The notes below the pieces were generated by a model. That model was not told where the DNA came from. It made no database searches and saw only the letters and a list, made by a program, of their open reading frames with translations. The translations under genes and the position numbers were made by a program. A stretch of DNA of 64,000 nucleotides. It comes from Cyanidioschyzon merolae. Its lineage: Eukaryota. The DNA lies in assembly GCA_000091205.1 (NCBI GenBank), contig AP006500.2. One strand, written 5' to 3'. Positions 1 through 61,678 of this stretch are shown in pieces (positions within the stretch are counted from its first letter, which is position 1; each line of letters starts with the position of its first letter).

Positions 1-1019
1 CATTAGGCGCGGGATTTCCGTGCGGAGTTTCCGAGTAGCCCTATGGACCCGGTACAACTGGATTTCAAACACGCATCCGAATCGAGATGATATGCGACGT
101 ACTCGATATATAGTTCATGAATGATGGATACCACTATACAATTCATAAGTATAAGCCTCCATTTTCTCGTTTCCGTAGTCGTCATACATTTTCAAATCAC
201 AAGCGCTTCAAGTTTGCGCTCTTTCGGTTTCACGGCAACGCCAGTGCTGAATCCTTTTGCGACACTGCACTGACGACGGAGCGGTACGCGACATCGTCCC
301 TGGATGACGTGTTGACAGCCATACGCTGAACGATCCGTGAGCTTCTCACGTTCCATCACCGGATTCATTCGAAACACGAATCCCGCTCGCTTCCTGAGCA
401 CCCGCAAAGCCGCATTCGTTCCCAGAATGATTCCTGTCACGGGGGATACGCCCAGATGCTGCCGTCGATTCTCCTTTCGCGGAAACGGATGCCAGACGCT
501 GACTCCAGTTCTCGCAGCGATGGCGTAGCGTGCGGGACGTGTCACCGACTCGTACGAGGGCAGCGTCGACAGATCCACGATATTCGACTTGTTCCGCAGC
601 CCGAAAACTCATTCCGGTGCTTGTTTCATCATGCGGAACATCGCACTCCACAGATCCCCCATCGAATGGAGCAGCGTGCGCTTTCTTAGATATAGCGGAT
701 AGCGCTCTCGCCCAGATATGCGGATAAGCAATGCGCATCCGATGACCCCTGCTCAGACGCAACCTTCCCACATTACCGAAAAGAAAAATAAAAAACGTCT
801 CCCGCCAGCGCTGGAGCATATCAGCGTACACTGCGGAAGCCGCCAGTGCCGCCTTACGGACGCCGGGGCCGGCGTGCGCGCTCGTTCGCCACCGACCGAC
901 TCGCCGCCGCTTTGTTGAAACATAAAGAAACGCTGCCCGGGACGAGTGTCAGCGGTTGTGTTGCACGATCATCAGTGCTACTGAGACAGTTCGCATATTC
1001 CTCTAGTCTCGCAAGCAGT

Positions 1020-2552: not shown

Positions 2553-3373
2553 CGTGCCTTCGCGTACTGCACAACCGGCGCAACAGTGCCTAGAGCAGAC
2601 TTGTTACCGTTTATATTCGGTGTGATTCCGTTTCGTGGCGGGAGTCTGGATCAGCACTGAAACCTGGGAGGTGTTCCCAGGCGCTTCGAATGATGCTCGT
2701 CTCGTACGCATCTGAACGGTACGCGAACAGTGTGCGCCTCTTCTCGACGAGCAGCTGCCTTTTCGTCGTACAGCCATGATGCGTTTTGCGTAGCGCTTCA
2801 GCGGACTTTTCCTGTGAATGCCTGCGTAAAGTGTCCGCGAAGGATGCGGCAACGATCGACTTTATCGGGGTATGTCAGCGATGAAGGCCGCAGGTTCAAG
2901 GCTGGACGCAAGCCGGGGCCTCTGGTCAGGTCACCGGCAACCTGCCCGCTTGCCTGAGCGTCTAGTTCCGTGGATCCATCACGTAAACGCAGAAAGACGG
3001 GCAACCCTAAGGCAAGCCTTCTTTTCGGCAACGCTCGACACGTGCAGACCCCATGAGCTGCAAGTGGGTGACACAACCGCAGGTCACTGCGACAGCCAAA
3101 CACGGGTGACCAGGTGTCGCGTTCGCCTTGCGTGGTCCCTTTGGACTAGAATGCAGCGTGGAAAGTGCTCGCTTGCACCTATTGCTGCTCAACGGCTGGT
3201 GTTGCTGCACCTGCACCAACACCAGCTGCTGCTGCTGCTGCACTTGTTGGTAGTCTAGGCGACGGACAGCAAGCCGGCGCTTCACGCGATAGCGTTGTTC
3301 ACGTCTTCTTCCAAGCAGAGGTCACTGGCTTTCAGGAAACACCAAAATCGGTCGTATCCGAAACATTTATGCT

Positions 3374-5837: not shown

Positions 5838-6018
5838 ACTTCGCTTCCCAGCCCTAGTCCATGATACTCAGAGCAGGTCATTCTGGAGTACCTGTACCAG
5901 CGCGCGCTTCTGGCTCAAAATAAGACGATTTCAGTGCTGCTGTCGTTCGCGGAGCGGGACCCCAGCCCCATTGACGTATGTTCGCGGGGAAGTTCATCTG
6001 GATGCTTGCGAGCTTTGC

Positions 6019-6827
6019 TCAACGTGCACATGTCGCATTTCCTCAATGTCTTGATGCGGTTCCGCGTGGGGCAACCCGCCTTGCCATGTGATGCTTGAGC
6101 GCTTCCAGAAACGTGGCACTCAACGTGCACATGTCGCATTTCCTCCACGTCTTGGTGCGGTTCCGCATGGGGCAACCCGCCTTGCCATGTGATGCTTGAG
6201 CGCTTCCAGAAACGTAGCACTCAACGTGCACATGTCGCGTTTCCTCCACGTCTTGGTGCGGTTCCGCGTGGGGCAACACGCCTTGCCATGTGATGCTTGA
6301 GCGCTTCCAGAAACGTGGCACTCAACGTGCACATGTCGCATTTCCTCCACGTCTTGGTGCGGTTCCGCATGGGGCAACCCGCCTTGCCATGTGATGCTTG
6401 AGCGCTTCCAGAAACGTAGCACTCAACGTGCACTTGTCGCATTTCCTCCACGTCTTGGTGCGGTTCCGCATGGGGCAACCCGCCTTGCCATGTGATGCTT
6501 GAGCGCTTCCAGAAACGTAGCACTCAACGTGCACATGTCGCGTTTCCTCCACGTCTTGGTGCGGTTCCGCGTGGGGCAACCCGCCTTGCCATGTGATGCT
6601 TGAGCGCTTCCAGAAACGTAGCACTCAACGTGCACATGTCGCGTTTCCTCAATGTCTTGGTGCGGTTCCGCGTGGGGCAACACGCCTTGCCATGTGATGC
6701 TTGAGCGCTTCCAGAAACGTGGCACTCAACGTGCACATGTCGCATTTCCTCAATGTCTTGGTGCGGTTCCGCATGGGGCAACCCGCCTTGCCATGTGATG
6801 CTTGAGCGCTTCCAGAAACGTGGCAAC
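6019..6827. repeat. minisatellite, 101-bp unit x 8 tandem copies
   Basis: Unit: caacgtgcacatgtcgcatttcctccacgtcttggtgcggttccgcatggggcaacccgccttgccatgtgatgcttgagcgcttccagaaacgtagcact. It repeats with period 101. Track ORFs on the minus strand at 101-nt offsets with near-identical 100-aa translations are an artefact of the array. Confidence 0.9.
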
Positions 6828-7389
6828 TTGCGAGCGATGAAAGCGACCTCGGGCCGGAAACGTTGCACCCCGTCTCCTCGGCGCGTGAACGCTTCTCGGT
6901 ATCGCGTCCTGAGTGCTGTTGCCTGTGACTTTTGTCCTTGCAGGATCAGCGATCAACGATTTCGCTGTCTGGTACGCGTGCAACCCATGATGCATAAGGG
7001 CGCTGGCTGCGTCCGCCAGGGACTGTACAACGCCAAACCAACCGCTTAATGCATCGTAGTTCCGTTACCGCAGGAACATCAGGACCCGTTCGAGCGAGCT
7101 AGGCTCTGTGGTACGGCAGCGGTACGAAAAGCACCAGCGTATAGCGTTGTGTGTCGGAGCAGAGCCTGATTTTCTAGCGCGCTTACCCGTACACACTGCC
7201 GAGCGACCAAGCGAAAGAGCCGCTTGATGCTTTGGACTGCAGGTACGCGTATTTTATGGTGAGTCATACCGTCGAGCGGACCAGAGACCTCGTCTGCTCG
7301 GATTTGCAGTGCGTTGTCCAGTTTGTTACGCTGCCACACACCAGAACCGGCACGTCTACCAGGAGGATGCTCCTGCCGGCTCTACAACC

Positions 7390-11763: not shown

Positions 11764-11924
11764 TTCGCGTATTTTTGGTTAAGGTAGATGCAGCGTGATG
11801 AGGAGGCCTCCAAACGGGCCGTGTATGGTGATTCTATTCGCCGAACTTGTATGACAAGCACGACGAATAAACATTGTAAGAATGCAGGCACGTGTAAAGG
11901 AAAACGATGCCTAGACGGATGGAT

Positions 11925-12620
11925 GCATCCGGGAATCCATAAGCGGATAAGTGCATGAATCAATGAATACGAACGATGTATGCATGATTGAATGCATCCA
12001 TCCATACAACCGATGCATCCTGGTGACTCTGGGGTAACGTGGCAACTTGGATGATGATCGAATCCATGAATCAATGAACACGAACGATGTATGCATGATG
12101 GGATGCATCCATCCATACAACCGATGCATCCTGGTGACTCTGGGGTAACCTGGCAACTTGGATGATGATCGAATCCATGAATCAATGAACACGAACGATG
12201 TATGCATGATTGGTTGCATCCATCCATACAACCGATGCATCCTGGTGACTCTGGGGTAACGTGGCAACTTGGATGATGATCGAATCCATGAATCAATGAA
12301 CACGAACGATGTATGCATGATGGGATGCATCCATCCATACAACCGATGCATCCTGGTGACTCTGGGGTAACCTGGCAACTTGGATGATGATCGAATCCAT
12401 GAATCAATGAACACGAACGATGTATGCATGATTGGTTGCATCCATCCATACAACCGATGCATCCTGGTGACTCTGGGGTAACGTGGCAACTTGGATGATG
12501 ATCGAATCCATGAATCAATGAACACGAACGATGTATGCACGATTGGATGCATCCATCCATACAACCGATGCATCCTGGTGACTCTGGGGTAACGTGGCAA
12601 CTTGGATGATGATCGAATGC
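11925..12620. repeat. minisatellite, 111-bp unit x ~6.3 copies, with alternating sub-variants (222-bp higher-order repeat)
   Basis: Unit: gatgcatcctggtgactctggggtaac(g/c)tggcaacttggatgatgatcgaatccatgaatcaatgaacacgaacgatgtatgcatgat(g/t)g(g/t)(a/t)tgcatccatccatacaacc. Copies begin at about 12012, 12123, 12234, 12345, 12456 and 12567. Track ORFs 11709..12600 and 11911..12600 are array artefacts with a 37-aa periodicity. Confidence 0.9.
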
Positions 12621-13260
12621 GAAGGAATGCAGAGGCTTTGCGATATCCTCATGCGAATGAATACATCAGTTTTCCCGTGACTTGCCAGAGATGCAGCTTA
12701 CAAGCTCCTCTTGATAGGTTCAAGAGCTGTCCATGAACATCAGTTTCGACTTCTCGGATGTCGAGTACGGTATCTGGTCGTTGCGTTGCTAGATTGCAAC
12801 TCTACCACTGGTGTTATCGAACTTGTCTAGACTTTTTGGAACTCAAGAAAACACGTTTTCCCTGGTCGCGTAATACCCTTTAACGATGCGTTCAGTTTGG
12901 AACGACACAGGTTGCTGGCATTTTCACCGGAGAACGTTCCTGAGAAACGCTTTCTGTCTTGTTCCGAAGCGTCGCAAAGCTTGACCCCTAAAGTTATGTC
13001 CCAGAAAACCGAACACCCGGCGGGGTCGGGTGCGAGTCTTCCTTTGAGGCGCTTCCGCTGCGCTGCGCGCCTTCTTCGATACCCGTTGTCGTTCGACGCT
13101 GCCGCACCAAAGCGAACAAAAAACTGCTTCTCGAACGAGAGCACGGTCGCGAAAACCAGGCAACAGAAACAACTATTCAGGCTTCAGTGCTGTCCGTTGG
13201 TAAGGTTACGACGTCGCTACAAACGGAACCGGAGCAGCGGTCTTTCTGCTTACCCGGTCT

Positions 13261-13708
13261 GTAAGCAGTCCGTCAGGGCAGATACCACGACGACGTCTAC
13301 AAACAGAGCAACACTAGCCGACGCTCATAGTTTGTGCGCTCCTGTGCAGCGTTCAAGCTCATCGTGCAACAAGTAAGCAGTCCGTCAGGGCAGATACCAC
13401 GACGACGTCTACAAACAGAGCAACAGTAGCCGACGCTCATAGTTTGTGCGCTCCTGTGCAGCGTTCAAGCTCATCGTGCAACAAGTAAGCAGTCCGTCAG
13501 GGCAGATACCACGACGACGTCTACAAACAGAGCAACAGTAGCCGACGCTCATAGTTTGTGCGCTCCTGTGCAGCGTTCAAGCTCATCGTGCAACAAGTAA
13601 GCAGTCCGTCAGGGCAGATACCACGACGACGTCTACAAACAGAGCAACAGTAGCCGACGCTCATAGTTTGTGCGCTCCTGTGCAGCGTTCAAGCTCATCG
13701 TGCAACAA
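13261..13708. repeat. minisatellite, 112-bp unit x 4 copies
   Basis: Unit gtaagcagtccgtcagggcagataccacgacgacgtctacaaacagagcaacagtagccgacgctcatagtttgtgcgctcctgtgcagcgttcaagctcatcgtgcaacaa, starting at 13261, 13373, 13485 and 13597. Confidence 0.9.
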
Positions 13709-13861
13709 GTCGGCTCTCGTTGCACCGCGTCTACTCGGCTGCTGCTGTGCTGAAAGCGTCCAGCGGTTCCAAGCACAGTCGAATAGCCGATCGAGCTAGG
13801 CTTGTTTTCGTTTGACGCTGTGAGCTTTGCGCCTGGTGCTTCCGCAACGATTCGGTGACTG

Positions 13862-16624
13862 ATGAAGACACCAGCTGCATACTGTGGCATTCCACGGGCG
13901 CTCGACGTCTCTGCATATGCTGCTGCACGTCTGAGAGAGTTGTGGCGACTGCAGCACGTCGTTCGAGCAGAGCAATGGCCCAACGTGAGCCGTAATAGAG
14001 CGCGGGCGGGTCGCTCAACGCGTCGTGTGTTCCAGTTATTGCCGTGGCATGCTCGTCGTCGAACGATGTCTTTCAGCACTCATCGTGTTCCGCGACCCTT
14101 CCGACACCTAGCTTGGGTTGAACTTTCGAAACAGCCGGCTGCTAGCCGCCGTTCAAGGCGTTCAAAGCTTACCAAGAAGGAACACTATCGTCGTCGGCGA
14201 TGGACTCGACGCGCCTACCGAAAGAGCGCCTTTCTTGTGAGAGATCGCTCCGAAGTAACGAGTCCATATGGCTGGCTCGAAACCCATGTCTGGCATGCGA
14301 AACGGATGCATATGTTTGAACCGTGCTGGGGCGGTCGACTCGCTTGGGCGCCCTGTGACCGAGGACTCAGAAGTTTCTGGCGCTGCGTATCCCGTGGTCA
14401 GTCTGATAAGCGCTGGAGACTCTGCAACGATATCTGCGCTATATATGATGCATCGTGGTATCGGGTGATTGAAATTCCTGAATACGTCGCACGCCATGTC
14501 CTACCGGGGCTCGTTGGAGAACGCACTTGGGCACGGCTTTGTTGTCAACCGGTCTGGCTTGGCTTGAAACGACTGGAAAATACCGCTATCTGGGATGAGT
14601 CAGGACGGATGATTGCTGCACAGGTGGAGTGGCTCTGGGAACCGCCCTCATTACCGATGTCGTCAGAGTCACGAAGAGAACCGGCTCCAGAGGGTACGCA
14701 ACCCATGGAAATCGAACAAACCGCAAGCAACGAGTCGGGGCACCTTGCTGGCCATTCGAAACGGCGTCTCTGGGCAATGGTACATCCACTCGTAAAAGAC
14801 GCTGTTCTGGAGTTGCTGCAAAGGGGCGTATCACGGATGTTGGCTTCCAGTCGACACGAGGCAGCTCCCGCGGAAGTGCATGCCACAACGCTTGATGAAC
14901 CTCTGGTATCGGGAACGCGCCCAAAGAGGCAGGAGGGAACCAGTGCTTTGCGATGCGCTGCACAAATGGAGCGCTCCCCAGACGCCCAAGAGCACACAAG
15001 TACCTGGTCAAATACCCCGGACACTGTGCAGGAGTTACCTGATGGTCTGGTTCGCTTCGAGTTGTACGGGAAGCGCTCCACAGAAGCGCTTCACCGAGCC
15101 CTGTTGAACGCCAACGCGCAAGGTCGAGACTGGATAGCATTCAGCCAGCTTGCGTCGCGGCTGGTATCTGCCGACAGCGTCAGCGGACAGAGCGTGTTTC
15201 ATCTGCATTGCGCAGATCCTCGACTGTTTTACCCTCCTAGAGTCCGAGTACCTGGACAAAGTCTATCGCAGACGCAAGCCGATTACAACTATGATGCCTT
15301 CGGGACGTATCTGCGCGCGGCGAGCGACTGGAAACGAAACTCCAGCCTGCCGGCCGCTATGCACGCGAGAACGCTCTTTGATACCACCTGGCGCAATGAG
15401 CTGGTGCTGAACGGCGTACGCGCTCTACCAGAAAGGTCATCTACTCGTATCCTCAGGTGGAAGCGGCGCCTAGCACGAGCAGAGGCTGCCTTGCAAGCAA
15501 CGCATAGTCGCCGGCCTGTTGCTGGAACGTGCGCTGCCGTCGTGCCGCGGACGTCATCCACAGCGCCTCCGCTCAAAAAGCGCCGCGTAGAGCCAGCACC
15601 TGCCGGGACGTTGTCGTCAAGCGCAGCTCTGGAAGCATCACGCGTGCTTGCAGGTGAAGCGCTCAGTGGATTGGCTGCTGCGCAGGCCGGTGAGCACTCG
15701 ACTTTGCTGCGCATACCCGTCGTGCTGCTGCATCGTCCAGCACAGGCGAGACGTCGATGGGACTCGGGCTGGGATGTGCTGCTCCCCAAGCGTTGGGCGA
15801 TGCCGTTCTGGAGCTCCCTGTGCTACGCGGGTGCTCGCGGTGTTGGTCTACGAGAGCGACGCTACGTCTATCACGAATCGGGCCGCTGTCATTTCCCAGA
15901 GGACTTTCCGGAGTGTAGGGAAGCGTACACACGCTGGGCTCAGCGCGACATTGAACGCGCTGCTGAGCAATGGAAACGAAGACCTCCGAGCAAAAGAGTG
16001 AATTTTACCCTGTACAGAGTACCGGAGCCTTTTGGTGTCGCCGATTGGCTCACGACGTCACTCTCTTCGGCGGGTAACGCGGCAGGAGCTGCCACCGCTG
16101 CTGTCGCTGGTGAAGAGTTGCATGTGCTTCGTTCGCGACAGGCCTTGATCGCACACGATGCGTACCAAACTGCATCGCATTCCGAGCAGCATCCCGTGTC
16201 CAGAGCTCGTTATCTTGTTCGAGTTCGTTTGCATCCGATCGGGCGAGCACCGCTGGCGACCAACGCTCTGATATGTTTGCCGCATACCGAGGACCTGGGC
16301 CTGGACGCCAGCACTAGTCACGCTCGAGTCGATGCGGTTCGGGAACAGCGCCCAGTGCCGGTCATCGAAGAACCTCGGGGTACGCACAACGACCACCAGT
16401 CAACAAGACAGGTCATCGGGCGACTGACCTGCAGTCAGTATTCGTGGAGCGACGGTTGTGTACGTGCATATGGTTTCGTCGATGTGGATACCCTGAACGT
16501 ATGTGCTGGTTTCGGATCTGCCAGCCAGAGACGCGCTGAACACCCGGTGGTGCTGGTACGCAACGTCACCAGCCGGGTGTATCGTTGGGCTCGACTCGAG
16601 CCGCTCTTCGACGAGGATACATAG
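13862..16624 (+). CDS. POP1: RNase P / RNase MRP protein subunit POP1
   Basis: N-terminal POP1-domain signature: basic RRSRRSKLTKKEHYRRRRWTRR followed by SPYGWLETHVWHAKRMHMFEPCWG (the LETHxWHAKR motif). ATG start at 13862. 920 aa is typical for POP1. Confidence 0.75.
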   Translation: MKTPAAYCGIPRALDVSAYAAARLRELWRLQHVVRAEQWPNVSRNRARAGRSTRRVFQLLPWHARRRTMSFSTHRVPRPFRHLAWVELSKQPAASRRSRRSKLTKKEHYRRRRWTRRAYRKSAFLVRDRSEVTSPYGWLETHVWHAKRMHMFEPCWGGRLAWAPCDRGLRSFWRCVSRGQSDKRWRLCNDICAIYDASWYRVIEIPEYVARHVLPGLVGERTWARLCCQPVWLGLKRLENTAIWDESGRMIAAQVEWLWEPPSLPMSSESRREPAPEGTQPMEIEQTASNESGHLAGHSKRRLWAMVHPLVKDAVLELLQRGVSRMLASSRHEAAPAEVHATTLDEPLVSGTRPKRQEGTSALRCAAQMERSPDAQEHTSTWSNTPDTVQELPDGLVRFELYGKRSTEALHRALLNANAQGRDWIAFSQLASRLVSADSVSGQSVFHLHCADPRLFYPPRVRVPGQSLSQTQADYNYDAFGTYLRAASDWKRNSSLPAAMHARTLFDTTWRNELVLNGVRALPERSSTRILRWKRRLARAEAALQATHSRRPVAGTCAAVVPRTSSTAPPLKKRRVEPAPAGTLSSSAALEASRVLAGEALSGLAAAQAGEHSTLLRIPVVLLHRPAQARRRWDSGWDVLLPKRWAMPFWSSLCYAGARGVGLRERRYVYHESGRCHFPEDFPECREAYTRWAQRDIERAAEQWKRRPPSKRVNFTLYRVPEPFGVADWLTTSLSSAGNAAGAATAAVAGEELHVLRSRQALIAHDAYQTASHSEQHPVSRARYLVRVRLHPIGRAPLATNALICLPHTEDLGLDASTSHARVDAVREQRPVPVIEEPRGTHNDHQSTRQVIGRLTCSQYSWSDGCVRAYGFVDVDTLNVCAGFGSASQRRAEHPVVLVRNVTSRVYRWARLEPLFDEDT

Positions 16625-16824
16625 CGAGAAGTTTCGCATGAACGTTGTCTATCGCAGCTGCGCTGGATGCGAGCAGAGGCAACGAAGCAGTGCACGCTTC
16701 CGTGGCTTTGACCAGTTCTTGAACCGTTCGGTACAACTAGCTCGCAAAAACACTGCACATCGCGTAGCTTCATTTGCGTCATCGCCAGAGCGCCAAAACC
16801 GGTGCTACCACGCCTTGCGCCCTT

Positions 16825-17400
16825 TTACGCCCGGTGCTTTTCATCGCGCTCCTGACCTGCCATACTATCGCTCGTTCGGATGCTGTGCAGGATCACATCG
16901 CGACTGCTCTCTTGGAATTCACCAGCCATGAACATATCATCTATGATTTGATACACGTTCGGAAAGTTGAATATGAGGTCTAGCTCGCAGACGTTCCCAA
17001 AATACCGATCGAGACACTCGACGAGCAAGTGGATCATATCGAGGGCGAGCAGCTCATTAGCCTCTCCGGTCGCCAAAGACTCTGCATCTATACAGAGTAT
17101 GATGTACAGGGCCGCATACCGGCGGTAGACGAGGCGATCTCTGTACTGTCCCGTTGTATGGAGCCGAACAGCGTCCGACACCGTTGGCTGCACGCCGTTT
17201 GTTTTGGAGGAGGCCGCACGCTGGCCCGCTACGGCGTTGTAGTAGTCGACTACATTGGACCAGTTGGGATCTCGCAGCAGCACCAGGTTCATCATGTCTC
17301 GAATGATGCGTTGCTTTTCCGCCTGGGTGAAAGATTCGAACCACTTTGCTACACGGACTTTGCCGTGGCGGCTCATCATTAACAAAAACCGAAACGTCAT
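16825..17400 (-). CDS. clathrin adaptor (AP) complex sigma small subunit (sigma1/sigma2-like)
   Basis: MTFRFLLMMSRHGKVRVAKWF...LVYRRYAALYIILCID...VCELDLIFNFPNVYQIIDDMFMAGEFQESSRDVIL closely parallels AP-2 sigma MIRFILIQNRAGKTRLAKWY...IIYRRYAGLYFCICVD...[35 protein letters not shown]. ATG at 17400. Confidence 0.85.
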   Translation of the reverse strand: MTFRFLLMMSRHGKVRVAKWFESFTQAEKQRIIRDMMNLVLLRDPNWSNVVDYYNAVAGQRAASSKTNGVQPTVSDAVRLHTTGQYRDRLVYRRYAALYIILCIDAESLATGEANELLALDMIHLLVECLDRYFGNVCELDLIFNFPNVYQIIDDMFMAGEFQESSRDVILHSIRTSDSMAGQERDEKHRA

Positions 17401-17889
17401 TTTTTCGGAACGATACTAGGACGCTGCTGCGGGTGCTTGCTCGTCCTGCAGAGGCCTTTTGTGCGGTCCCGCAGAGCAGTCTGTGTCACGTTCGCTTCCA
17501 CAACCTGCAGCCACCCGACGGGAGTGAAGGCCGAGCAGGCGAGCGCGCAAAGCACAGGTGCGTCCAAGAGCACTATTTGGTACGTTCCTCGAAACCGGAT
17601 GTAAACGAACAATCCAGCTTGTGACGCTAACACCTCGAGAGGCCAACGTGTTTCAAACGTGTAGCGAGGCACGTCTCTGCATGCACCCGGAGTTGCGTTC
17701 GGACTGGAGAGCGCCGTATCCGACGCTGCGCGAAAACACTTGTCCACGTGGCTGCTGCGACATGAAGGTGCTTGGACGCAGTGCGTTTGACAACCACAAC
17801 CGCCTAATGGAAGCATCACATAAGATTCTGCATATAGAACAATGATCAGAAACGAATGAATAACTAGCAACGACATAGTGATTTTTTGT

Positions 17890-18470
17890 CGCTCTACGGT
17901 AAACGTTTAAAGGGAGAAGAGCTTTCGGTATTTTCGACAGTTTACCCTATGAGCGGAAGGTCCCGCGAGCCGGACGAGTCTGTCGGGCTCCTGCTTCATG
18001 CTCCATACAGTGCCGAGTGCTGTCGTGAGACCTGAGCAGTTCGTCCGAAACGCAGTTTATTCTGGGACTGGGAGCGGGTAGATTTCATTCGGGCGTCGCC
18101 CGTATTGCAGTAATCGTCTAGTATATCGCTTCGCGCTGCCGCAGGCAGCAGGTCTATCAGCACAACTTGCAGGCTCCCAGAATGATACCGAATGCCGATT
18201 CGGTCTTGAATGAACCATCCCTCGAGCTGACACCCTCTTTGGTATGGCAGAGCCGTTCTGCCTCCGTGCTGCATCTGCTCCATCTGAAAAACAAACGCGC
18301 AAAGGTGGGTGCTCAAAGCAGACTAGGTGCCCAGTGGAACATACGAAACGGCCAGTATATGCCAGAGGAAGTACAATTGATGGAACTTGGAGATAGGGTG
18401 CAGCAGCAAGATGGACGCTTTCTCACTTAACAATATCCATCCCGTATTCTGGGATCCCTAGTCCAGCGAA
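17890..18470. repeat. dispersed repeat family, copy 1 (second copy at ~59803-60390, same orientation, roughly 75% identical)
   Basis: Shared blocks: ctacggtaaacgtt. 30-nt identical core ggaaggtcccgcgagccggacgagtctgtc (17955-17984 vs 59867-59896). ttcatgct. cgtccgaaacgcagttt. gggcgtcgccc hairpin. atatcgcttcgcgctgccgcaggcagcag. caggctcccagaatga. tggcagagccgttctg...gcatctgctcca. Confidence 0.6.
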
Positions 18471-18749
18471 ATCTCCGAATCAAAACATGGAGTGATGCGC
18501 GACTGGCGGCGACGTTGATAAACTAGGCCTCTTCTCAGCGCTCAACGGACGACACATTCCTGGTGAAAGGTTCGTACGAATAGTGCGTGTTTGAGATACC
18601 TGCAGCTCACATACTTGAACGTGCGACAAATATGGTCACAGGTGTGTGCTAGTTAAGGTGTTTCCTTGTGTTTTCTGCGACTCAACGCTAACTTCCGACG
18701 GCTCGTTCACCTAGACGCCTGCGTCAGTGTCGCTCAGCCAGGTAAAGCG

Positions 18750-18790
18750 TGTGTGTCTGTGTCTGTGTGTGTGTGCGCGTGTGTGAGCAC
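18750..18790. repeat. imperfect (GT)n dinucleotide microsatellite
   Basis: Direct reading: gtgtgtgtctgtgtctgtgtgtgtgtgcgcgtgtgtg. Confidence 0.8.
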
Positions 18791-20557
18791 ATGACGCGTG
18801 CACTAGGGCAACTGGACGACACAGCTGCAGCGCCCGACACGCTGAGGCGTCGGCATGCGCGCTACATTCCACAGATAGACTGGAGCGAGTCGCCTTTGGA
18901 AGCGTCGACGGACTCGTCGGCCTCCGAGTCGGATCGTGCAGTGCGCTCTGCAGCATCGGTCGTGTCAGTCGGCAGCAGTTACGGTACCGGTAATGGTGCA
19001 GGGCGCACAGCGCTCACGGATAGCATGGTAAGCGAACTGGTTGAGCAGTGGTCTCTGCGCAGGCCGCTGCAGGCGAGCGTCCAAAACTCGTCACCAGCTC
19101 GTCGGCACTGGAGCGAGGCTCGTCAGGTGGAGGTGTCGTACTTTATAGCGCCCGAGTTGTTTTCAAACCGGGACTTGAACTTGCGACCCGGCACGAGACA
19201 AGTCGGGTGTTGTCTTTCGTGCCTGCAGCGGCATGCTGAGAGTCAGCAAATCAACATACCGTGAATGTATTCGATGATCTTCACGAGTCTTTGCAGTCGC
19301 AGGGCCCGCTCGTTTTCATGTCGTGCATGGTACTTGCTGGCGCTACCATGACTGTGCAGACATCGCACGGTACTTGCGAGAAGGCACAAAGGCAGTAACG
19401 ACTGCGTTGATAGATGGTGGATCGCTGCAAAGTCCAAACCTGGCATTGCTCGCCTATAACAAGCAGCAGGCGAAATCGTCTGTAAGAGGCATGGGCAGAC
19501 GGAGCATTGCGAGGGAATGCGGACATTGGCAAAGCAAAATGAAAGCCAAGTCTATCCATCCTGTGATGCGTTGGATACATACCCAGCTGTTGCTGGAAGC
19601 GACGCTCGGTCTTGTCTTCTCGTAGTGCAGCAACCGCAAACGTGTACGGCCTGTTTGATAGCTGTTAACAAGGGTATGGTGCGCACCCTCTGGACGTTGG
19701 AGCTGGAAACGGCAGCGTATTCTCAAGACGACGACGGAAATGCGAGCCTCGCTCTGAAGGAGCGACCTCAACGGCACTCTTTTAGACTCCGAGTCGATAC
19801 CTCTCTTAAGCGGTCGCATAGAGGCTGCGAGAGAAAATCGCTGGACGTGTTCCCGGAATCCAGTGTTGGAACGGAAACGAGAAGTAGACGCCATCCTGCA
19901 GGTGCGTATCCCTGTGGGCATCGATGACCGTACCGATATGCCTTGGTGGGAGTGCGCGTTCACCGCGCCGCAGCGCACCGTTGGTGCAGTTCCAGTCGAC
20001 CAGAGCGCATGCGTCGCAGCGTGAGACCCCCGTGCACCGAGCTGAGCATCCGGAACCGCAACGTCCGTGATCCGGTATGCAGCATGCCCTGACAAGAACG
20101 CCTGATCCGATCTGCGCTAGTAACGGATGGATGTTTGGAGGACCCGTGCATCATCACGGGTAGCGTTCGACAGCATCGTGCATGCGTTTCGGTTCGCACT
20201 GAAACTGCAATGTAGCTGGGGCAACTGCTCGACGATAGCGACACACACGGGTCGGTAAACGTGCCGCGTGTTTCCCGAGTTTTGTTTATTTTGTATCTGA
20301 AACAGAGCATGGGGCGCTGCACGCTTCATGTGTAAATTCGGATGTAGCTTCTATGGATCTATCTTGATGACGGTCTGGGGATTTCTCCCGTACCATAGCT
20401 TGACGTGGAGCGCAGCAGGCGCCGACTTCTAAGGGGGTTCTGGAGCTTGCGCGGCATCCATCCAGCTGAACACCTATTTACGGCCTAAGATGGAGGAATC
20501 TAGCGGTGCTAGTTTGGGATGCGCAAAGGCTATCGGTTCATGCACCCGAGGCCTCAT

Positions 20558-21941
20558 CTGCGGCTGTGCCAGATTGAAATGCGAAACTGCATTGCTTGCT
20601 CGGTTCTTTTCCGTCGTTTTCTCGCCCAGCCTCACGCGGTGTACATCCGCTACATTCGAAGCGGAGCAACAGCGGCTTACGAATGCACGCGTCGGTTCAG
20701 GATCCGGAGTCGTCTTGTCCGAGTGGCTCCTTGGACGCGTCACCGTTCCATTTCCGCATGCCATCGGAATCGAGATAGCTCGCGATGCCCCTGGAAACCA
20801 ATTCCAAAATTAACCGATACCATTCCCGAGTTCATACAATGAAGCTTCGAGCCTGCTCCTCTCGTTACGTTTTGCATGCTCAAATCACACACGCTCCAAG
20901 TATTCGATTTCTCTGTTTCAAGGTCGCTCGTGGGCGGAGCATGTGGCGCTCCGGCACCGACCACGAAAGAGAATCGGTGTCATCTGCTTGGCAGCTTGTT
21001 GACCAGCGTATACCGCAAATTCAGTCAACCTGTAACGTCAAATGAGAGAGATCGAATGCGTTCGAAAGACAGGTTCTCGCTTTTCTGTGGTCGTCGTCTA
21101 CGCGGGATTCTACAGTACCATGACGCCTCTGACAGCGTATGCTCCAGGATGCTCCAGTCGGTTGCGCTTGCCCGCAAGAGGTTTTCTGAGTCAGACCTGA
21201 CTCATCTACGGGATCGCATCCAGTGGAGCGTGTGGCATCGCTTTGCATGAGGCGAGCGTTGTCGGACGGGAGTCTCTCGACCTGTTCCCTGGTCTGGCGT
21301 CGCCTTCGAGGCCTTGGTGCATCATGGAAAACATCGCGCTCCACGAACCCGCTATCGAGTGGACCAGCGTGCGCTTCCACGCCCAGCAGACAGCGTCCTC
21401 GACGCTGGGAGCGCCCTGAGGAAGCCCCTGATCGTAGAGTACGGCACGAGACGCAGAGACGCGAGGCGGGTATCGAGGATAGCCTGCAGTGCCTGCCACG
21501 AGCGTGTACCGTGCGATGACGCAAGCGTTGACGCGCCACAGGGCAGCCTTCTCATGAAGACGTGTGGTCTGCATATCGTTAGACCTGAACGCAGCCACGT
21601 GTCGTCTCTGCGAAGGGCGTCTCCAGGTTGTCTGGCGAAAGGATGAGAGTGGCAAGCGAAACGTCGATCACAACTTTTGCCAGTGCACGGCATGCGTTGA
21701 CAACAATCGGCAGCTACGACACCGGGATTTGAACACCACCACCTATATCCATCGACTGCTATCGACGGAGCTGGCGGCAAAGGGGAGACCAGCGTGTTTA
21801 CACCCGCAGATTCGAGGAAACACAGGGAAACATTCTTGGGGAAAGAGGCCACAAACGCTGGTGCGCATAGGAATAGGACGAAACGAAAACCTCGGTGCGT
21901 ACGTCTTTATCAGTGGATCTGTTCTATCTGGTACTGGCGTG
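20558..21941. repeat. 1.38-kb direct repeat, copy A (copy B at 38315-39698, about 98-99% identical)
   Basis: Track ORFs are pairwise near-identical at a constant offset of 17757 nt (20876..21250 vs 38633..38992; 21021..21539 vs 38778..39296; 21564.. vs 39321..). Boundaries read at ctgcggctgtgccagattgaaatg and ...tggtactggcgtgaa. Flanks differ. No recognisable protein inside. Confidence 0.85.
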
Positions 21942-22276
21942 AATGCCAGGCCACCGCGCGGCACCTCCATTCCCTACACTGAGGCATACAAGCACGTCGC
22001 TTTGGGCGTGCTGAAGTCCGCTCTTCCCTGTCTCTTGGAAACAATGTTGCTCCGGGGTATTCTGGTTCCATGTATTGATCATCCATCAATAACAAAGCAG
22101 GTTTCCTGGTGATGCGCCTTCCACTACACCAAACCGGACAGTGCTCGCGTACAGTGTGCCACCTGAATGAACGCGAAAAGCTGGACCCCCTAGATATCGT
22201 TGGATGCACGAATCTCGCCCCTGCCTTTGCCAGCAAGTCTCGACCGGAGCCCATAGTGAATGGAAATTTCCGGAGT

Positions 22277-38314: not shown

Positions 38315-39698
38315 CTGCGGCTGTGCCAGATTGAAATGCGAAACTGCATTGCTTGCTCGGTTCTTTTCCGTCGTTTTCTCGCCCAGCCTCATGCGGTGTA
38401 CATCCGCTACATTCGAAGCGGAGCAACAGCGGCTTACGAATGCACGCGTCGGTTCAGGATCCGGAGTCGTCTCGTCCGAGAGGCTCCTTGGACGCGTCAC
38501 CGTTGCATTTCCGCATGCCATCGGAATCGAGATAGCTCGCGATGCCGCTGGAAACCAATTCCAAAATTAACCGATACCATTCCCGAGTTCATACAATGAA
38601 GCTTCGAGCCTGCCCCTCTCGTTACGTTTAGCATGCTCAAATCACACACGCTCCAAGTATTCGATTTCTCTGTTTCAAGGTCGCTCGTGGGCGGAGCATG
38701 TGGCGCTCCGGCACCGACCACGAAAGAGAATCGGTGTCATCTGCTTGGCAGCTTGTTGACCAGCGTATACCGCAAATTCAGTCAACCTGTAACGTCAAAT
38801 GAGAGAGATCGAATGTGTTCGAAAGACAGGTTCTCGCTTTTCTGTGGTCGTCGTCTACGCGGGATTCTACAGTACCATGACGCCTCTGACAGCGTATGCT
38901 CCAGGATGCTCCAGTCGGTTGCGCTTGCCCGCAAGAGGGTTTCTGAGTCAGACCTGACTCATCTACGGGATCGCATCCAGTGGAGCGTGTAGCATCGCTT
39001 TGCATGAGGCGAGCGTTGTCGGACGGGAGTCTCTCGACCTGTTCCCTGGTCTGGCGTCGCCTTCGAGGCCTTGGTGCATCATGGAAAACATCGCGCTCCA
39101 CGAACCCGCTATCGAGTGGACCAGCGTGCGCTTCCACGCCCAGCAGACAGCGTCCTCGACGCTGGGAGCGCCCTGAGGAAGCCCCTGATCGTAGAGTACG
39201 GCACGAGACGCAGAGACGCGAGGCGGGTATCGAGGATAGCCTGCAGTGCCTGCCACGAGCGTGTACCGAGCGATGACGCAAGCGTTGACGCGCCACAGGG
39301 CAGCCTTCTCATGAAGACGTGTGGTCTGCATATCGTTAGACCTGAACGCAGCCACGTGTCGTCTCTGCGAAGGGCGTCTCCAGGTTGTCTGGCGAAAGGA
39401 TGAGAGTGGCAGGCGAAACGTCGATCACAACTTTTGCCAGTGCACGGCATGCGTTGACAACAATCGGCAGCTACGACACCGGGATTTGAACACCACCACC
39501 TATATCCATCGACTGCTATCGACGGAGCTGGCGGCAAAGGGGAGACCAGCGTGTTTACACCCGGAGATTCGAGGAAACACAGGGAAACATTCTTGGGGAA
39601 AGAGGCCACAAACGCTGGTGCGCATAAGAATAGGACGAAACGAAAACCTCGGTGCGTACGTCTTTATCAGTGGATCTGTTCTATCTGGTACTGGCGTG
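38315..39698. repeat. 1.38-kb direct repeat, copy B (see copy A at 20558-21941)
   Basis: See copy A. Constant 17757-nt offset and near-identical ORF translations. Confidence 0.85.
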
Positions 39699-40570
39699 AA
39701 CAGTGAAACAGAAAATGGTTCACAACCATGGACGGTAGATATATCCACTCACCCGCTGACGTCTCCCGGCCTTTTTGACCGACCCTCTGCTATCTGCTCC
39801 AGCTTTTCCTTCTACTCTTCGAGCCTGAGAGGCTGCCCCACAAACTTGTATCTCGTCAGCCCCGGGGGTCTCGTCTTCAGCACCACAAATCTCCTGGTAT
39901 TGATGACAGCGCTGAGGTCCTGGTACACGAATCCGATGCGTTTGCTGCCGCTGATAGAACTCATCAGTGCAAGAATTCCTCGAACTCGCGCACTCTGTTC
40001 CACTATAGTCTCATTGTCGTCCAGCCCAACAAACACCTTTTCCCGCCTATTTCCCTACTTATTCTTTTTCGTCCTCATTTGCCCCGTTTCGCTGGATGAT
40101 TGACGAGGAGCGGATCTTATTCGTTGTTTTCCAGCAGCCAGCGACACAGTGCATCCACGATCCCCGATTTAGGCATCAATACCTATCCCCTTGACTTTTT
40201 ATTTCTTCAACTGAACACACTGGGAACGCGTCTTCTATAACCCGAGAAAAGTCATTTTTAATGAAACGCATCTGGTAACGGAACACTATTGAAGTGAAAG
40301 TCTATACACCGATCGTCTGTCTGGACGGTGGCTCGCCACACCGATCGCACCAACACACGAGTGGCGCTTGCCGCTGCAAAACATACCATTGTTGCTCATT
40401 AGGAGTAGGTTCTAGAGCTTGCACTCCTTGTACGTCGATCATCATCTATACAGGCACAGGTAATACGTTTCCGAGCCAGTGACTTTCCCAGACAGAATCT
40501 GCTTTTGAACTAGCTTGCTGAACGTGTTTGATCGTGCGCTTTGGGAGCAGGTACTTGAGCTTCGACGCTC

Positions 40571-41380: not shown

Positions 41381-41397
41381 AGGGACCCCTCAGAGGC

Positions 41398-41466
41398 TCA
41401 GTCAGTCAGTCAGTCAGTCAGTCAGTCAGTCAGTCAGTCGGTCGATCGGTCGGTCGGTCGATCGGC
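41398..41466. repeat. (TCAG)10 followed by degenerate (TCGG/TCGA)n, starting 18 nt after the SOD stop codon
   Basis: Direct reading: tcagtcagtcag...tcggtcgatcggtcggtcggtcgatcgg. Confidence 0.9.
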
Positions 41467-57033: not shown

Positions 57034-57359
57034 TGCCCAAGCCACGTCTGTCTCGATGCCCTCCCAAATTCAAGAAATAGGAGTCCAGCTCGAAGAACCA
57101 AGCTTCACCAAGTAGCCTTTTTGAGCAGAGCACGTCCCTGGTTCGACAAATGGGAGTACCACGAACGACAACCGCCTTTCAAAAGAAAAACGCTGTCACT
57201 GGCCGTATACAGTCGTGGCGGCGAATGCGCGTAGACAAAACGCCTCCAACTGACGCGCAGACGCTTCCGAGGCTTTCTCGACCGGCCACCCACGACTGCT
57301 TCCAATTGTTTCTAATATAGTTCCACTTTGGGATGTTGTCCAACAATGTTTTCTCATGT

Positions 57360-58578
57360 CTACGCTGGAGGTCTCTTCTCCAGCACCGCACATCTCCGGA
57401 TATTGATTGCGGCGTTAAAGTCTCGGTTCACAAACTCCATCCGTTTCTTGCCATCGTTGGTTGTACTTACGAATGCGAGTAGCCCTCGAACTTTCGCCCT
57501 CCTTTCCATTTGCTCCTCCGTCAGCGGTCCGAACTTTTTTATATCCTCAGGGCTCCGCTGGCACTTTTCCATATCGACCCGCTGGAGTGTACACCTCAGC
57601 CCGTGGTGTGTATACGATGTTCGGAACTCATCTACAGGTATCGTAACGAAACGCCTTGCGCACTGCTTGTACGTTCTTGTCGTTGGAGCTGGCGTACACC
57701 CTTTTCGGGTCTTCCAGCGCCCTGCTCCGCGTGCTACTACGAGCCTCTGACTTTTATCCTCTTTGAAGGCGCTCATTGGAAAAATTCGCAGATGCACGCT
57801 GCCTCCCACCGTATAGATGAATACGTAGACGAGCCCAAAAGGGCTTTGTGTACTCTTTCCACAGCGCCTCACAATGAGCAACACGAATTTCCATGAATTT
57901 CAGAAACGCTTTAAAGTCCGCTCCGCGGCAAGTCACCTCGCTCAAAGCTTCCCGGTGATCCTTCATTCCATCGTTCTACGTCTCAATTTTCTTCCTTGCA
58001 TTCATGATTCCCGATTCTCGATAGTATCTCGCTCTCGAGAACCTCAACAGACGCACGTCTTTCTGACGCAAGTTGCCGTCGGTATCATCTCCCCCACGCT
58101 TGGGTACAGCGACGGTTATAATATTCGTGTTCCCGGGGTCCGCGCCACCGACAAAGCAATTCTCATGCACTTTCCGCGTCGCAGGACCCGCCTCCTTCTT
58201 TTTTTCATGCTTCGTCGCGCCAACCGTAAAGTCGTTAGCTTGCACTTTCTGTGTCGCAGGATCCTTCTCCTTCTCATCTTCATGCTTCGTCAGCGGCGGA
58301 ACTGGACGATCCACCTTCAACCGCCGATAGTGTACACACAGGGCTACTCCATCGGTTTCGATCAACCCAGTGAACAACTTTTGCTTGCTTATTTTGAGAC
58401 GTTTGAAAACGAAGATATTCTTCCAGTGCATCTCCCTGTTCTCACCTGTGAACTCTGCCCTCCTTACATCGAACTCGGGACTGATCTCCTTCATGATGCC
58501 ATGAAGGACTCTGGAGCCGGTAGTAACAAAATGTGACTTGATGGTGCACATTGGAACGACGTTGGAGCGCTTCCCCAT
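57360..58578 (-). pseudogene. TnpB/Fanzor-like nuclease core (RuvC-I through RuvC-III), interrupted by one frameshift/stop between 57884 and 57976
   Basis: Segment 58578-57976 starts with ATG (MGKRSNVVP...). If joined across the frameshift the two parts give ~400 aa, the TnpB/Fanzor2 size range. The catalytic triad residues D (GADPG), E (DEFRTS) and D (NRDFNAAINI) all appear intact. Confidence 0.55.
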
Positions 58579-59425
58579 TAGGGCCGCCTTCCGTCTCTCC
58601 CACTCTTCATTTTTTCGTCACTCAGCTTTATTTCCGCCTTGCGTTCTGGCGCTCGGTCCAGAAACGCGAAATAGCACAGAATGAGGCGATAGTATCTTTC
58701 ATTATCTTTTTTCAGCTCTGATATCTTTTCTCTTGAATTCGCCAGCCCCGAGACTGCACGGTGCTCTTGTATAACAGCACGGATTACAGAAGCTTCATTC
58801 GTGCTCCTGCGTGATTTCTTCTCGTCGACGAATTCGATCTAATCTTCATGCTTGCGATCGTTCGTGATACCGTTGATAATCGCCCATATTCCTTTGCGAG
58901 ACAGGCCCGGGTAAATTGCAAACACGGCGCATATCATAAAACGTTCGAGGTTCATCCTCAAATGCTTCTTCAGGTTCGTGAGGTACTTCATCGCCCCGTA
59001 TGTGTAAGTATCCCGGTCACCCCTGTATCGAGTACCCTCGAAGCGGAATTCCGCGAAGTTTTCGTGGAGGACGTGCACTAGCTCATTTTCCGTCCGCGTT
59101 TCCCCTGTGCCAAGCATCAGGTGACGAATAAAGGTCTTGTCGAAAACTCGTCCGGAATCTCGACTGTTTCCGTATGCGCCACGTCTTCGTACATCTCCCT
59201 CGCCATATGCATGACTCCTAAAGAAGCCTTTATAACACTCATGGGGTACGAATCGACACGGTTCCTGATAGCGTCTCGCAACTTTTCCTTGTAGGGATCC
59301 TTGATATGTTTACGAAGACAGGCGTTTACCACCATCTCGTCGTACTTTCGTCTTTCGTACAGCATGTAAAGTCGGGTCTCCTGCCTTAGCTTCTTCGTCT
59401 TCTCCTGCTCCACTTGGCTCGGCAC
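57360..59425 (-). mobile_element. TnpB/Fanzor-like (OMEGA-family RuvC nuclease) element, fragmented by frameshifts
   Basis: Four consecutive minus-strand ORFs in frames 1, 2, 0, 2: 59425-59117, 59117-58839 (TGATG stop/start overlap), 58578-57976, 57884-57360. Third segment: [16 protein letters not shown]...[17 protein letters not shown] (RuvC-I), then [17 protein letters not shown]. Fourth segment: VTIPVDEFRTSYTHHG (RuvC-II, DExxTS) with partial Zn-finger cysteines, then EFVNRDFNAAINIRRC (RuvC-III, RDxNAAxNI). The whole block is AT-richer than its surroundings. Confidence 0.65.
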
Positions 59426-59802
59426 TCTGTTTCGCTTTCTCTGGCAGCCGGCGAGGTTGTACCACCGGTATCATCCACTTGCTTCTCCATACGTTTCCAT
59501 TTTTGAAAAAGAACGCGCTTTGATCGCTTCTGCTATGTAGCGCGAAAAATCAATCGAATACACCCCCCCTGAGGATTGAAACACAATGGAACTGAGAAGC
59601 TATACTTGCGGCCACTTTCACACAAATACACCCTGTACGATAGAACAACACGCGAAAGATCAGAATCGCGTTTCCCTTCAACGGCGACATGCGCGTCATG
59701 TCTCGTGACTGCCGGATCTCCCGGGTGCGCGTATCGAGCGCACTATGTACCAACAAGAACATAGACTAACGATAAACTACCAACGATACAAAAATTCCTT
59801 TC

Positions 59803-60390
59803 CCCTCTACGATAAACGTTGAACGTGGGAAACCGCTTCCGTACTGTCGAAAGTTAGCCTTCTTGACGGAAGGTCCCGCGAGCCGGACGAGTCTGTCACG
59901 TTTGTGTTTCATGCTGCACTCAGTGGCAGGTACTTCAGTGGCAGGTACTTCAGTGAAATCTGAGCCACTCGTCCGCAACGCAGTTTCCTCTGAGACTAGG
60001 GGCAGTTAAGCTGTGTCTGGGCGTCGCCCATGTTGCAACTATCTCCGAGCATATCGCTTGGCGCTGCTGCAGGCAGTAGGGCTGTCTGCCCAGTTTTCAG
60101 GCTCCCAGAATGACAATTAGCTCTGATTCCGTGTCAGGTGTAGTATTCGTCGGGCCGACACCATCGGGAGTATGGCAAAGCCGTTCTGGCTACGTGCAGC
60201 ATCTGCTCCAGCGGTGTAGGCGCTGCAGCGGGTGCTCAGCGCAGGCACTCGGCACACGGTAGAACGTTCGAAACGATCAGTATACCCGAGATGAAGAGTA
60301 AGTAATGGAACTTGAAGGTAGGATGCATGATGATGGGCGCTTCCCCGAAAGCCATTATCTATGCCGCAATCTGAGATCCATGGTTCATGT
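59803..60390. repeat. dispersed repeat family, copy 2 (see copy 1 at 17890-18470), abutting the 5' side of the TnpB/Fanzor-like element
   Basis: See copy 1. Includes the local duplication cagtggcaggtacttcagtggcaggtacttcagtg. Confidence 0.6.
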
Positions 60391-61678
60391 AAACGTTTTG
60401 ATATCGAAAAAAAAATCGCTACCGCCATTGTCATCCCCGCGGATCCATCAACTGGTGATCGCCTCGTCCATGATCTGTTTCATTGCACAGGTCGCTCGAT
60501 GGACAAGCGTTCCTCAACTGCGCGCTTGAGATGAGCGATCGGGAAAGCATCCATCGATCTAGGTCCTGCCTCCAAGTTCCGTGGTGCATACGTCTCCTCC
60601 GAGTGTACTCGTTATCTCTTATGTTCTGTGGTATGCGTCGAGGCTGTTGTGAGCGTTTGCGATAGCGCGTGTAGCGTCGATGCGCACGCAGCCCCGAGGT
60701 CATGTCCACGAAGCGGTTTGTGTGCACGGCCGCCGATGTATTGCTAGTGAAACATGTCGATACAGTGGATCGGGAGTGCTCTGGATGCACTGGTGCTGTC
60801 GGCAGCTGGGGAATGGACACTTGTTTCTTCTCGGATATGGCAGCGTCGTGATGCCTGCAGACCAATTTCCTAGACGAGAATCGGGATTCATAGCATAGAC
60901 GCTTGAACGCTGCGCCCTATCAAACCGCTGGTAGCGGAGCCTGTGGCAGCGCGCAACCCTATACGCCCGCTCGTGCCGCGGAGCATGGCGCAGGCTTCAT
61001 GGTATTCGCGCATGCGTTCAAAAAAGGGTCCCGGAGTGCATCGCTGCCCGTTCCACTGAGGTCGCAGGCTCACCGATACCGCCTCATCGATCCTGGGGCC
61101 GTTCATATCAGTGGATGGAGGTGCTGCGTGATGAAACTACGCAGAGAGGTTTTACCTGGATTCAGACTGCAGCAGGAAGCACGCCTTCGTTCAGTCTCGA
61201 GAGTGCTTGCCTCAGCAGCAGCGCAGTGTCATTTGCCATGAAAACCTACGCAGGTGTCCCAGCGGTCCAGCGTCGCGAGAGGCTACGGATAGCAGCTCCC
61301 CCCGGATCGATGCAGATGCAATTGCGGCTAGGCGAAACCGATATCTGTGCCCGGCACGAATCGTGAATGTGGATACGTATACGGATGCATCCATAAGTGC
61401 GTCCATCGCTCGCCAAGGTCGATGCAGCGTCCGTTATTGCGCAAAAAACGACGATTCCGTGGACCTTCAGCGAAAAGGCGAGCTGCGCTCCACATTCCAT
61501 CTCCCCTGTGCTGCAGGCTCCTGTTCGGCGCAACGCATCTATAGACACGATGCAGCGCTCGTGGTAGCCTGTGGCGAAAATTCGATCGAGTTGTCTCTCA
61601 GAGACCACATGAATGGCCACTAGATGAACGCCAGGGGGTGCCTCGGGGCTCGCGCTCGCGACCCCGAATCCCTTTGGA

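Follow-up and report, generated by a model that had tools for sequence, protein, structure and literature searches.

Two copies of a dispersed repeat, here called copy A and copy B, are present in a 64,000-nucleotide stretch of chromosome 18 of the red alga Cyanidioschyzon merolae (contig AP006500.2 of assembly GCA_000091205.1), hereafter the window. Both are very probably old, decaying insertions of a family that is already known from this species, TE-N2_CMe/CMe-1A. The repeat is real, already catalogued and ordinary. Its unit of ~635 bp, here called the module, appears either alone, as TE-N2_CMe, or as the first 635 bp of the ~3.17-kb element CMe-1A, where it lies upstream of the open reading frame (ORF) of a Fanzor1 protein. 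Copy B is best read as the terminal module of a full-length but dead CMe-1A, copy A as a solo module, and the interval 60477-60698 as a further, truncated copy. Three observations go beyond the literature: a constant end that finishes in an A-run, target-site duplications which accompany the tail, and a preference for TCG. The features concerned are listed below.

17832-18485, minus strand (Repbase orientation): copy A, a solo TE-N2_CMe-like copy, i.e. the 635-bp terminal module of CMe-1A with the Fanzor part absent (consensus blastn, nhmmer)
57173-60406, minus strand: full-length degenerate Fanzor1 element CMe-1A (consensus 3169 bp), aligned to the consensus from end to end
57234-59440, minus strand: frameshifted Fanzor1 (TnpB-like) pseudogene (tblastn with the 734-amino-acid CMe-1 protein)
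58141-58290, no strand: 75-nt tandem duplication inside the Fanzor pseudogene (repeat search)
59757-60415, minus strand: copy B, the 635-bp module forming the Fanzor-upstream end of the full-length CMe-1A (consensus position 1 falls at 60406; nhmmer 59757-60411)
59868-59897 (also 17955-17984), plus strand: 30-nt core identical in copies A and B, the reverse complement of consensus GCAGACTCGTCCGGCTCGCGGGACCTTCC
60477-60698, plus strand (Repbase orientation): third partial copy of the module (nhmmer, model positions 420-640, 127 bits, E 4.6e-38)

The consensus of CMe-1A and the CMe-1 protein were taken from the supplement of Bao and Jurka (2013; Mob DNA 4:12, PMC3627910). By blastn, consensus positions 1-2195 align to 60406-58216 with 83.5% identity and positions 2122-3169 to 58214-57173 with 87.8%, the overlap of the two alignments at 2122-2195 being due to the 75-nt tandem duplication at 58141-58290. 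Copy A (18463-17832) is matched by positions 22-645 with 79.1% identity. An alignment of the family, which has a sharp boundary at this point, suggested that CMe-1A ends a few bases further out, at ~57167. CMe-1A has been described as a 3169-bp element with ~150 copies that are ~80% identical to the consensus, without terminal inverted repeats (TIRs), with target-site duplications that could not be determined and of unknown classification (Bao and Jurka, 2013). Its 5' 635 bp match the entire TE-N2_CMe with 95% identity; TE-N2_CMe has ~70 copies and is listed in Repbase as non-autonomous (Bao and Jurka, 2013). The copies in the window agree with this family in sequence, organism and divergence (~80% to the consensus) and differ from it in nothing essential; they can be regarded as individual degenerate members of it, and nothing was found that speaks against the identity. 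The host is C. merolae 10D, chromosome 18, as six ORFs of the window are identical to proteins among BAM82395-BAM82414.

An earlier description may concern the same element. Nozaki et al. (2007; BMC Biol 5:28) reported 253 interspersed repeats of 3.2 kb in C. merolae, with a truncated ORF resembling WSV486, and Fanzor1 has also been listed for white spot syndrome virus (WSSV) (Bao and Jurka, 2013). The repeat can be tied to CMe-1A because WSSV carries a Fanzor1. The two are alike in their size of 3.2 kb, in being interspersed and in having a truncated ORF, and the count of 253 fits ~150 plus 70 copies, an equivalence which is inferred from the descriptions.

A first-pass annotation of the window, made from the letters alone, had proposed a non-autonomous or terminal transposon sequence, possibly one end of a TnpB-bearing element, and this proposal agrees well with the consensus: copy B corresponds to the first ~635 bp of CMe-1A and copy A to TE-N2_CMe. 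The 30-nt identical core, the common orientation and the collinear blocks that it described are all present. The window has exactly two occurrences of the core (GGAAGGTCCCGCGAGCCGGACGAGTCTGTC), at 17955-17984 and 59868-59897, both on the plus strand, and none of 100 shuffles of the window gave a match. Copies A and B have the same orientation and are collinear by both MAFFT and blastn, and the blocks GGGCGTCGCCC, ATATCGCTT.GCGCTGC.GCAGGCAG.AG and CAGGCTCCCAGAATGA were all found. The similarity had been put at about 75%, which is too high, as the measured identity is 70.9% without gaps and 67.9% when gaps are counted. The longest identical run is 31 nt (P ~0.003 under uniform divergence). The limits given for the unit (17890-18470 and 59803-60390) fell short of the homologous unit, which spans ~17832-18485 in copy A and ~59757-60415 in copy B; outside it, self-comparison of the window gave no further similarity between the two neighbourhoods.

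The individual copies can be delimited more closely. Two nhmmer profiles place copy A at 17844-18485 and 17831-18469, and its A-run end (18482-18485) is degenerate. The flanks of copy A (16500-17800 and 18500-20500) are repeated in none of the metagenome loci described below, where orthologues of the copy in other strains have 98.3-98.9% identity. The A-run of copy B occupies 60407-60415 and is a T-run on the element's own strand; the copy is 97.4-99.8% identical in metagenome strains. Within copy B there is a 15-nt tandem duplication (CTCAGTGGCAGGTA...; 59919-59948), which is missing from the otherwise identical copy B of the metagenome contig Ga0207433_10019645 (L001/L053) and is thus a strain-level length polymorphism. 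The annotation had counted two copies only. The third comprises just ~200 nt beside the constant end and is inverted relative to copy B, the two standing tail-to-tail ~60 nt apart. It was placed at 60499-60697 by the hidden Markov model of the consensus and is present in every orthologous strain contig. Its blastn match to the consensus is 71% over only 104 nt, which argues that it is old.

Copy B had been said to lie immediately 5' of a Fanzor-like element. The contiguity holds, but copy B is the terminal part of that element and not a mere neighbour. The CMe-1 protein matches 59440-57234 as four pieces in different frames (amino acids 18-135, 117-294, 294-553 and 554-734) with 59-84% identity, and the gene in the window is judged a pseudogene because of these frameshifts. 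Its ORF pieces contain RuvC-I 'GADPGNTN', RuvC-II 'VDEFRTS' and RuvC-III 'NRDFNAAINI'. The Fanzor1/TnpB motif D-X(125,275)-[TS][TS]-X-X-[zinc finger]-X(5,50)-RD is found in the ORF pieces of the window and in the consensus protein, with a lowered number of zinc-finger cysteines and with the window copy frameshifted. Pfam PF07282 (Cas12f1-like_TNB) matched the Fanzor ORF weakly (E 0.014, 16 bits, under the cut-off of 26.3), and phmmer of the ORF against PDB sequences returned nothing relevant. The assignment to Fanzor1 rests on these motifs together with the phylogeny of Bao and Jurka. By eye, the termini of CMe-1A show an imperfect inverted match of ~11/15, centred at both ends on the palindromic AAACGT(C)TTT; no formal TIR came out of the repeat search of the window.

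At the other end of the element, ~25 nt from the Fanzor-3' end, lies a GC-rich 8-bp hairpin (TGCCGCCA...TGGCGGCA; 57190-57225, minus strand; consensus ~3110-3145). It sits where an omega RNA scaffold or a right-end signal would be expected, and locus L031 seems to bear a compensated version of it (TCGCC/GGCGA).

The repeat belongs to a large family. The central 21-mer of the core, searched in public metagenomes, was found on 54 contigs from hot-spring samples. Iterated nhmmer over the window and these loci gave 92 matches, which fall into 20 distinct full-length clusters with 67-76% identity to copies A and B, and at least 27 distinct diverged copies lie on metagenome contigs of the same species complex, several of which hold two or three copies of the module. 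So many diverged copies indicate a large family and not a gene present once or twice. Many of the contigs (L001, L005, L010-L013, L015, L017, L018 and L022) terminate inside the module or at its edge, which indicates that short-read assemblies of Cyanidioschyzon populations come apart at the repeat.

The region beside copy B (57160-59700) recurs in at least 15 loci. At least ten paralogous loci (L016, L026, L031, L039, L048, L050, L051, L055, L059 and L060) have the module and the Fanzor region directly joined, in a composite of 3.25 kb arranged as in the window, so that the co-occurrence of the repeat with TnpB-like sequence, which the first-pass annotation had singled out as worth checking, is borne out. 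The family alignment has sharp common boundaries, and the unit has the 3' end ...ATCCATGGTCAATGnAAACGTTTTGTCATCG followed by an A-run; the terminus can be written ...AATGTAAACGTTTTGTCATCG(A)n. As the loci were fetched with the 21-mer, conservation of the core among them is an ascertainment artefact. In eight by-catch copies without the exact 21-mer, identity of the core to the consensus is 0.78 against 0.72 overall, and the core ranks 89th of 620 windows, the best of which (0.82) overlaps it. The core region is somewhat above average in conservation and is not invariant. Among the allelic contigs fetched, no presence/absence polymorphism (empty sites) was seen, and searches of IMG/VR with the core 21-mer and the Fanzor protein gave no viral relative.

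Could copies A and B instead be paralogous genes for a large structured non-coding RNA (ncRNA), perhaps the missing nuclear RNase P RNA or something akin to RNase P/MRP RNA? This is highly improbable, although several points invite the idea. The core contains the motif GGAAGGUC, which fits the CR-I-like form GNAANNUC and which a two-sequence RNAalifold prediction pairs with 3' GGAC-G-CUUUC; the gene for POP1, a protein subunit of RNase P/MRP (BAM82398, 13862-16624, plus strand), lies 1.2 kb upstream of copy A; and the RNase P RNA of C. merolae was not found although Rpp21 is present (PMC1636426). The MRP RNA of the species is encoded in an intron elsewhere, and the adjacency of POP1 to copy A is a coincidence. 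Rfam gave no match at gathering thresholds over the whole window, either to RNase P/MRP RNA or to another known ncRNA, and at E values up to 10 there was only noise over the element. The sequence is that of a published transposon consensus, and it exists in dozens of copies, 60-85% identical, with 5' truncations and target-site duplications. In an alignment of 20 copies RNAalifold gives -19.9 kcal/mol with a covariation term of only -0.32. When the structure predicted from A and B is laid on this alignment, 80.8% of cells pair (column shuffles: 80.2%), and the 32 changes on both sides of a pair fall within the 24-36 obtained when partners are slid by one to three columns. Helices are broken as often as chance would have it, and selection for RNA structure is therefore not acting on the copies. 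The loose likeness to the RNase P/MRP CR-I consensus to which the annotation had pointed finds no support, and RNase P/MRP or any other large ncRNA is rejected on the strength of the Rfam scans, the multi-copy, truncated nature of the family and the lack of covariation beyond controls.

Other kinds of gene fare no better. As to telomerase RNA, the unit lacks the template CCCCCCAUU, and the candidates that have been published are on other chromosomes. Motifs resembling those of box C/D small nucleolar RNAs (UGAUGA/CUGA) occur in copy B and are not conserved in copy A. A coding unit is rejected on the grounds that indels are not multiples of three and that the ORF at 60117-60434 exists in one copy only. 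A Fanzor's omega RNA comes from the 3' end of the ORF, or from the element's right end, and reads into the flank (PMC13565253); the module, 5' of the ORF, is at the wrong end of the element for this. It is also improbable that the module acts in the Fanzor-sense direction, as a promoter or 5' leader or as an omega RNA-like guide component, in addition to any role as a mobilisation signal. In full-length copies its place is always upstream of the Fanzor ORF, and the elements have been reported as transcribed, as such a role would have it. Against this stand the origin of Fanzor omega RNAs at the 3' and not the 5' side, the lack of conserved RNA structure in the module, its mobilisation on its own some 70 times (Bao and Jurka, 2013), and the fact that truncated copies retain the Fanzor-distal end and not the part adjacent to the ORF. 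That a local segmental duplication made copies A and B has a negligible probability: they share an orientation and a chromosome, on which 42 kb separate them, but their flanks are unrelated, those of copy A being unique, and many dispersed copies exist elsewhere, in a family with sharp common boundaries.

How the family spreads can be approached through the ends of its copies, which were placed on consensus coordinates in the plus orientation of the module, i.e. antisense to Fanzor. All copies that are not cut by the end of a contig reach the A-run end (3106-3169). The other end scatters, lying at 1-4 (full length), 2085, 2485-2534 (TE-N2-like), 2584-2598, 2634, 2822, 2908 and 2957. A minority of copies, from related strains, have target-site duplications of 10-19 bp, which abut the variable end on one side and follow the A-rich tail on the other. 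These are the examples found.

L052: TCGACATA[T/C]GCTG
L032: ATCGATACGTGTA
L038: AT[T/C]ACCTCGGGT
L033: T[G/A]GGATGCTGCG
L062, truncated and nested in another copy's tail: ATCG[G/C]AAAGAGAAT
L031, full-length: ~16/19 matching

Set against controls with mismatched flanks, three copies reach a duplication score of at least 9 where 0.32 are expected, and two reach at least 10 where 0.08 are expected. For CMe-1A itself no target-site duplications had been determined (Bao and Jurka, 2013), in contrast to this minority of related-strain copies. The duplications for which the first-pass annotation proposed an inspection of the copy boundaries exist in metagenome copies; in the window there is no convincing one at copy A and none at the full-length element. 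The A-rich tail is 4-11 nt long, variable, often interrupted and located inside the duplication. Of 28 copies, 9 have TCG immediately behind the tail (background frequency 0.0235, P ~1e-8), at loci L024, L025, L032, L042, L045 and L062 and at 60416 in the window, and the excess survives removal of the few allelic duplicates. In the informative cases the pre-insertion site is CA^TCG, similar to the end of the element itself, GTCATCG. This excess of TCG points to a sequence-preferring integration step.

As the A-run end is retained in all copies, even the truncated ones, we infer that the module would be a cis-acting end required by the mobilising machinery. The family's unchanging 3' end, its truncations on the 5' side, its A-rich tail and its duplications of variable length are the classical marks of target-primed reverse transcription as used by long interspersed nuclear elements (LINEs). 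We lean towards a mechanism of this type, without giving it quite an even chance. An RNA of the strand antisense to Fanzor, ending in ...GTCATCG and an A-rich tail, would be copied by LINE-type target-primed reverse transcription, with machinery supplied in trans by those elements of the alga that lack long terminal repeats (non-LTR elements); copying would start at the A-run end and stop at variable points, and insertion at staggered target cuts would leave the duplications of 10-19 bp. The literature gives 26 elements related to non-LTR reverse transcriptases in C. merolae, three of them intact. The wider proposal, that CMe-1A/TE-N2_CMe is a Fanzor1 unit which spreads by retroposition and integrates at CA^TCG, and so would be the first Fanzor in a retroposon-like element, is one that we regard as possible and on the doubtful side. 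The family is like short interspersed nuclear elements (SINEs) and other LINE-dependent retroposons in its A-rich 3' tail, variable duplications, 5' truncation and subfamily structure. It differs from SINEs in having no head of the type transcribed by RNA polymerase III (tRNA, 7SL or 5S; no Rfam match), in the length of its unit (635 bp to 3.2 kb) and in having a long form with an antisense nuclease gene.

Several points weigh against retroposition. The RNA would run antisense to the Fanzor ORF, and certain CMe-1A copies reportedly retain intact Fanzor ORFs, which suggests that Fanzor matters for the spread (Bao and Jurka, 2013). A review of 2026 knows of no retrotransposon that encodes a Fanzor. 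A motif search of the window and 69 loci (~600 kb) gave no reverse transcriptase motif, no RNA polymerase III boxes or internal promoter were identified, and inspection of the family consensus by eye revealed no correctly ordered A and B boxes. The full-length copy in the window lacks a target-site duplication, and most copies are too old to show any. The counts of duplications and tails, moreover, include a few allelic duplicates, so that there are fewer independent events than the raw numbers indicate.

With the same identity of the family, spread as DNA is the chief alternative, if rather unlikely: copying of the Helitron2 type, rolling-circle or one-ended, would run from the constant end and terminate prematurely. 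Bao and Jurka (2013) proposed Helitron2-type rolling-circle copying for CRe-1, 2 and 3, Fanzor1 elements from Chlamydomonas reinhardtii, which are regarded as non-autonomous Helitron2 elements and show the same syndrome, with one end over-represented and the other truncated, duplications of 7-19 bp and non-autonomous partners of ~650 bp. Compared by their features, these elements and CMe-1A both carry a Fanzor1 as cargo, have one constant end and have short non-autonomous relatives with which they share an end; likeness in sequence is not expected. Further in favour of such copying are the hairpin near the Fanzor-3' end of CMe-1A (z -1.9), the imperfect inverted motif shared by the two termini, and the likeness of the targets to the element end (CA^TCG and GTCATCG), since HUH-type enzymes act in this way; and Fanzor is otherwise known just from DNA transposons. 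What speaks against it is the detail of the ends. Unlike in CRe, at the truncated end no T-run stands before the duplication; upstream of the duplications, and likewise of the full-length ends, the flanks are not rich in T, and no TTTT lies outside the duplication, where CRe has it. The T/A-run of CMe-1A is inside the duplication, and its length varies as that of a poly(A) tail does. At the constant end there are no clear asymmetric TIRs, and a terminal hairpin is not significant (z 0.2 to -1.6). The Fanzor gene of CMe-1A points away from the constant end, again unlike that of CRe. In C. merolae, only eight 'class II' elements, all TnpB-like, have been reported, and no RepHel-type transposase or Helitron.

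The surroundings of the copies are otherwise as follows.

846-2552, plus strand: gene for a La-domain/xRRM protein
13862-16624, plus strand: POP1 (Pfam POP1_N, POPLD, POP1_C), RNase P/MRP protein subunit, BAM82398

The AP-sigma gene, next to which copy A had been placed, is indeed its neighbour (~16825-17379, minus strand) and is situated between POP1 and copy A. Two copies of a 1386-bp segment, 99% identical and in direct orientation, lie 17.7 kb apart (20558-21943 and 38315-39700), and a third related piece of 100 nt lies at 584-683 (71%); the segment has no match to CMe-1A or the CMe-1 protein. Directly after its second copy follows the remnant of a different, distant Fanzor-like gene (39764-40012, minus strand), which matches the C-terminal 84 amino acids of CMe-1 (54% identity, E 3e-19). 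Similar short fragments of the 3' region of Fanzor occur in several metagenome loci. There are also three minisatellite-like arrays at 5917-6923, 11843-12697 and 13149-13820, with periods of 101, 111 and 112 nt and ~5-8 copies of 95-100% identity, of which at least the 111-nt array overlaps long minus-strand ORFs, and a (TCAG)n microsatellite that degenerates to (TCGG)n (41390-41457).

The feature is therefore a catalogued repeat, and neither a new RNA gene nor the missing RNase P RNA of C. merolae. For the movement of this unclassified Fanzor1 family, the constant A-run end, the variable duplications and the preference for TCG provide concrete handles. Retroposition, if true, would run counter to the present view of Fanzor nucleases as passengers of excising DNA transposons only. 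The clues to the mechanism would matter only if they lead to proof that a Fanzor-bearing element moves through RNA.

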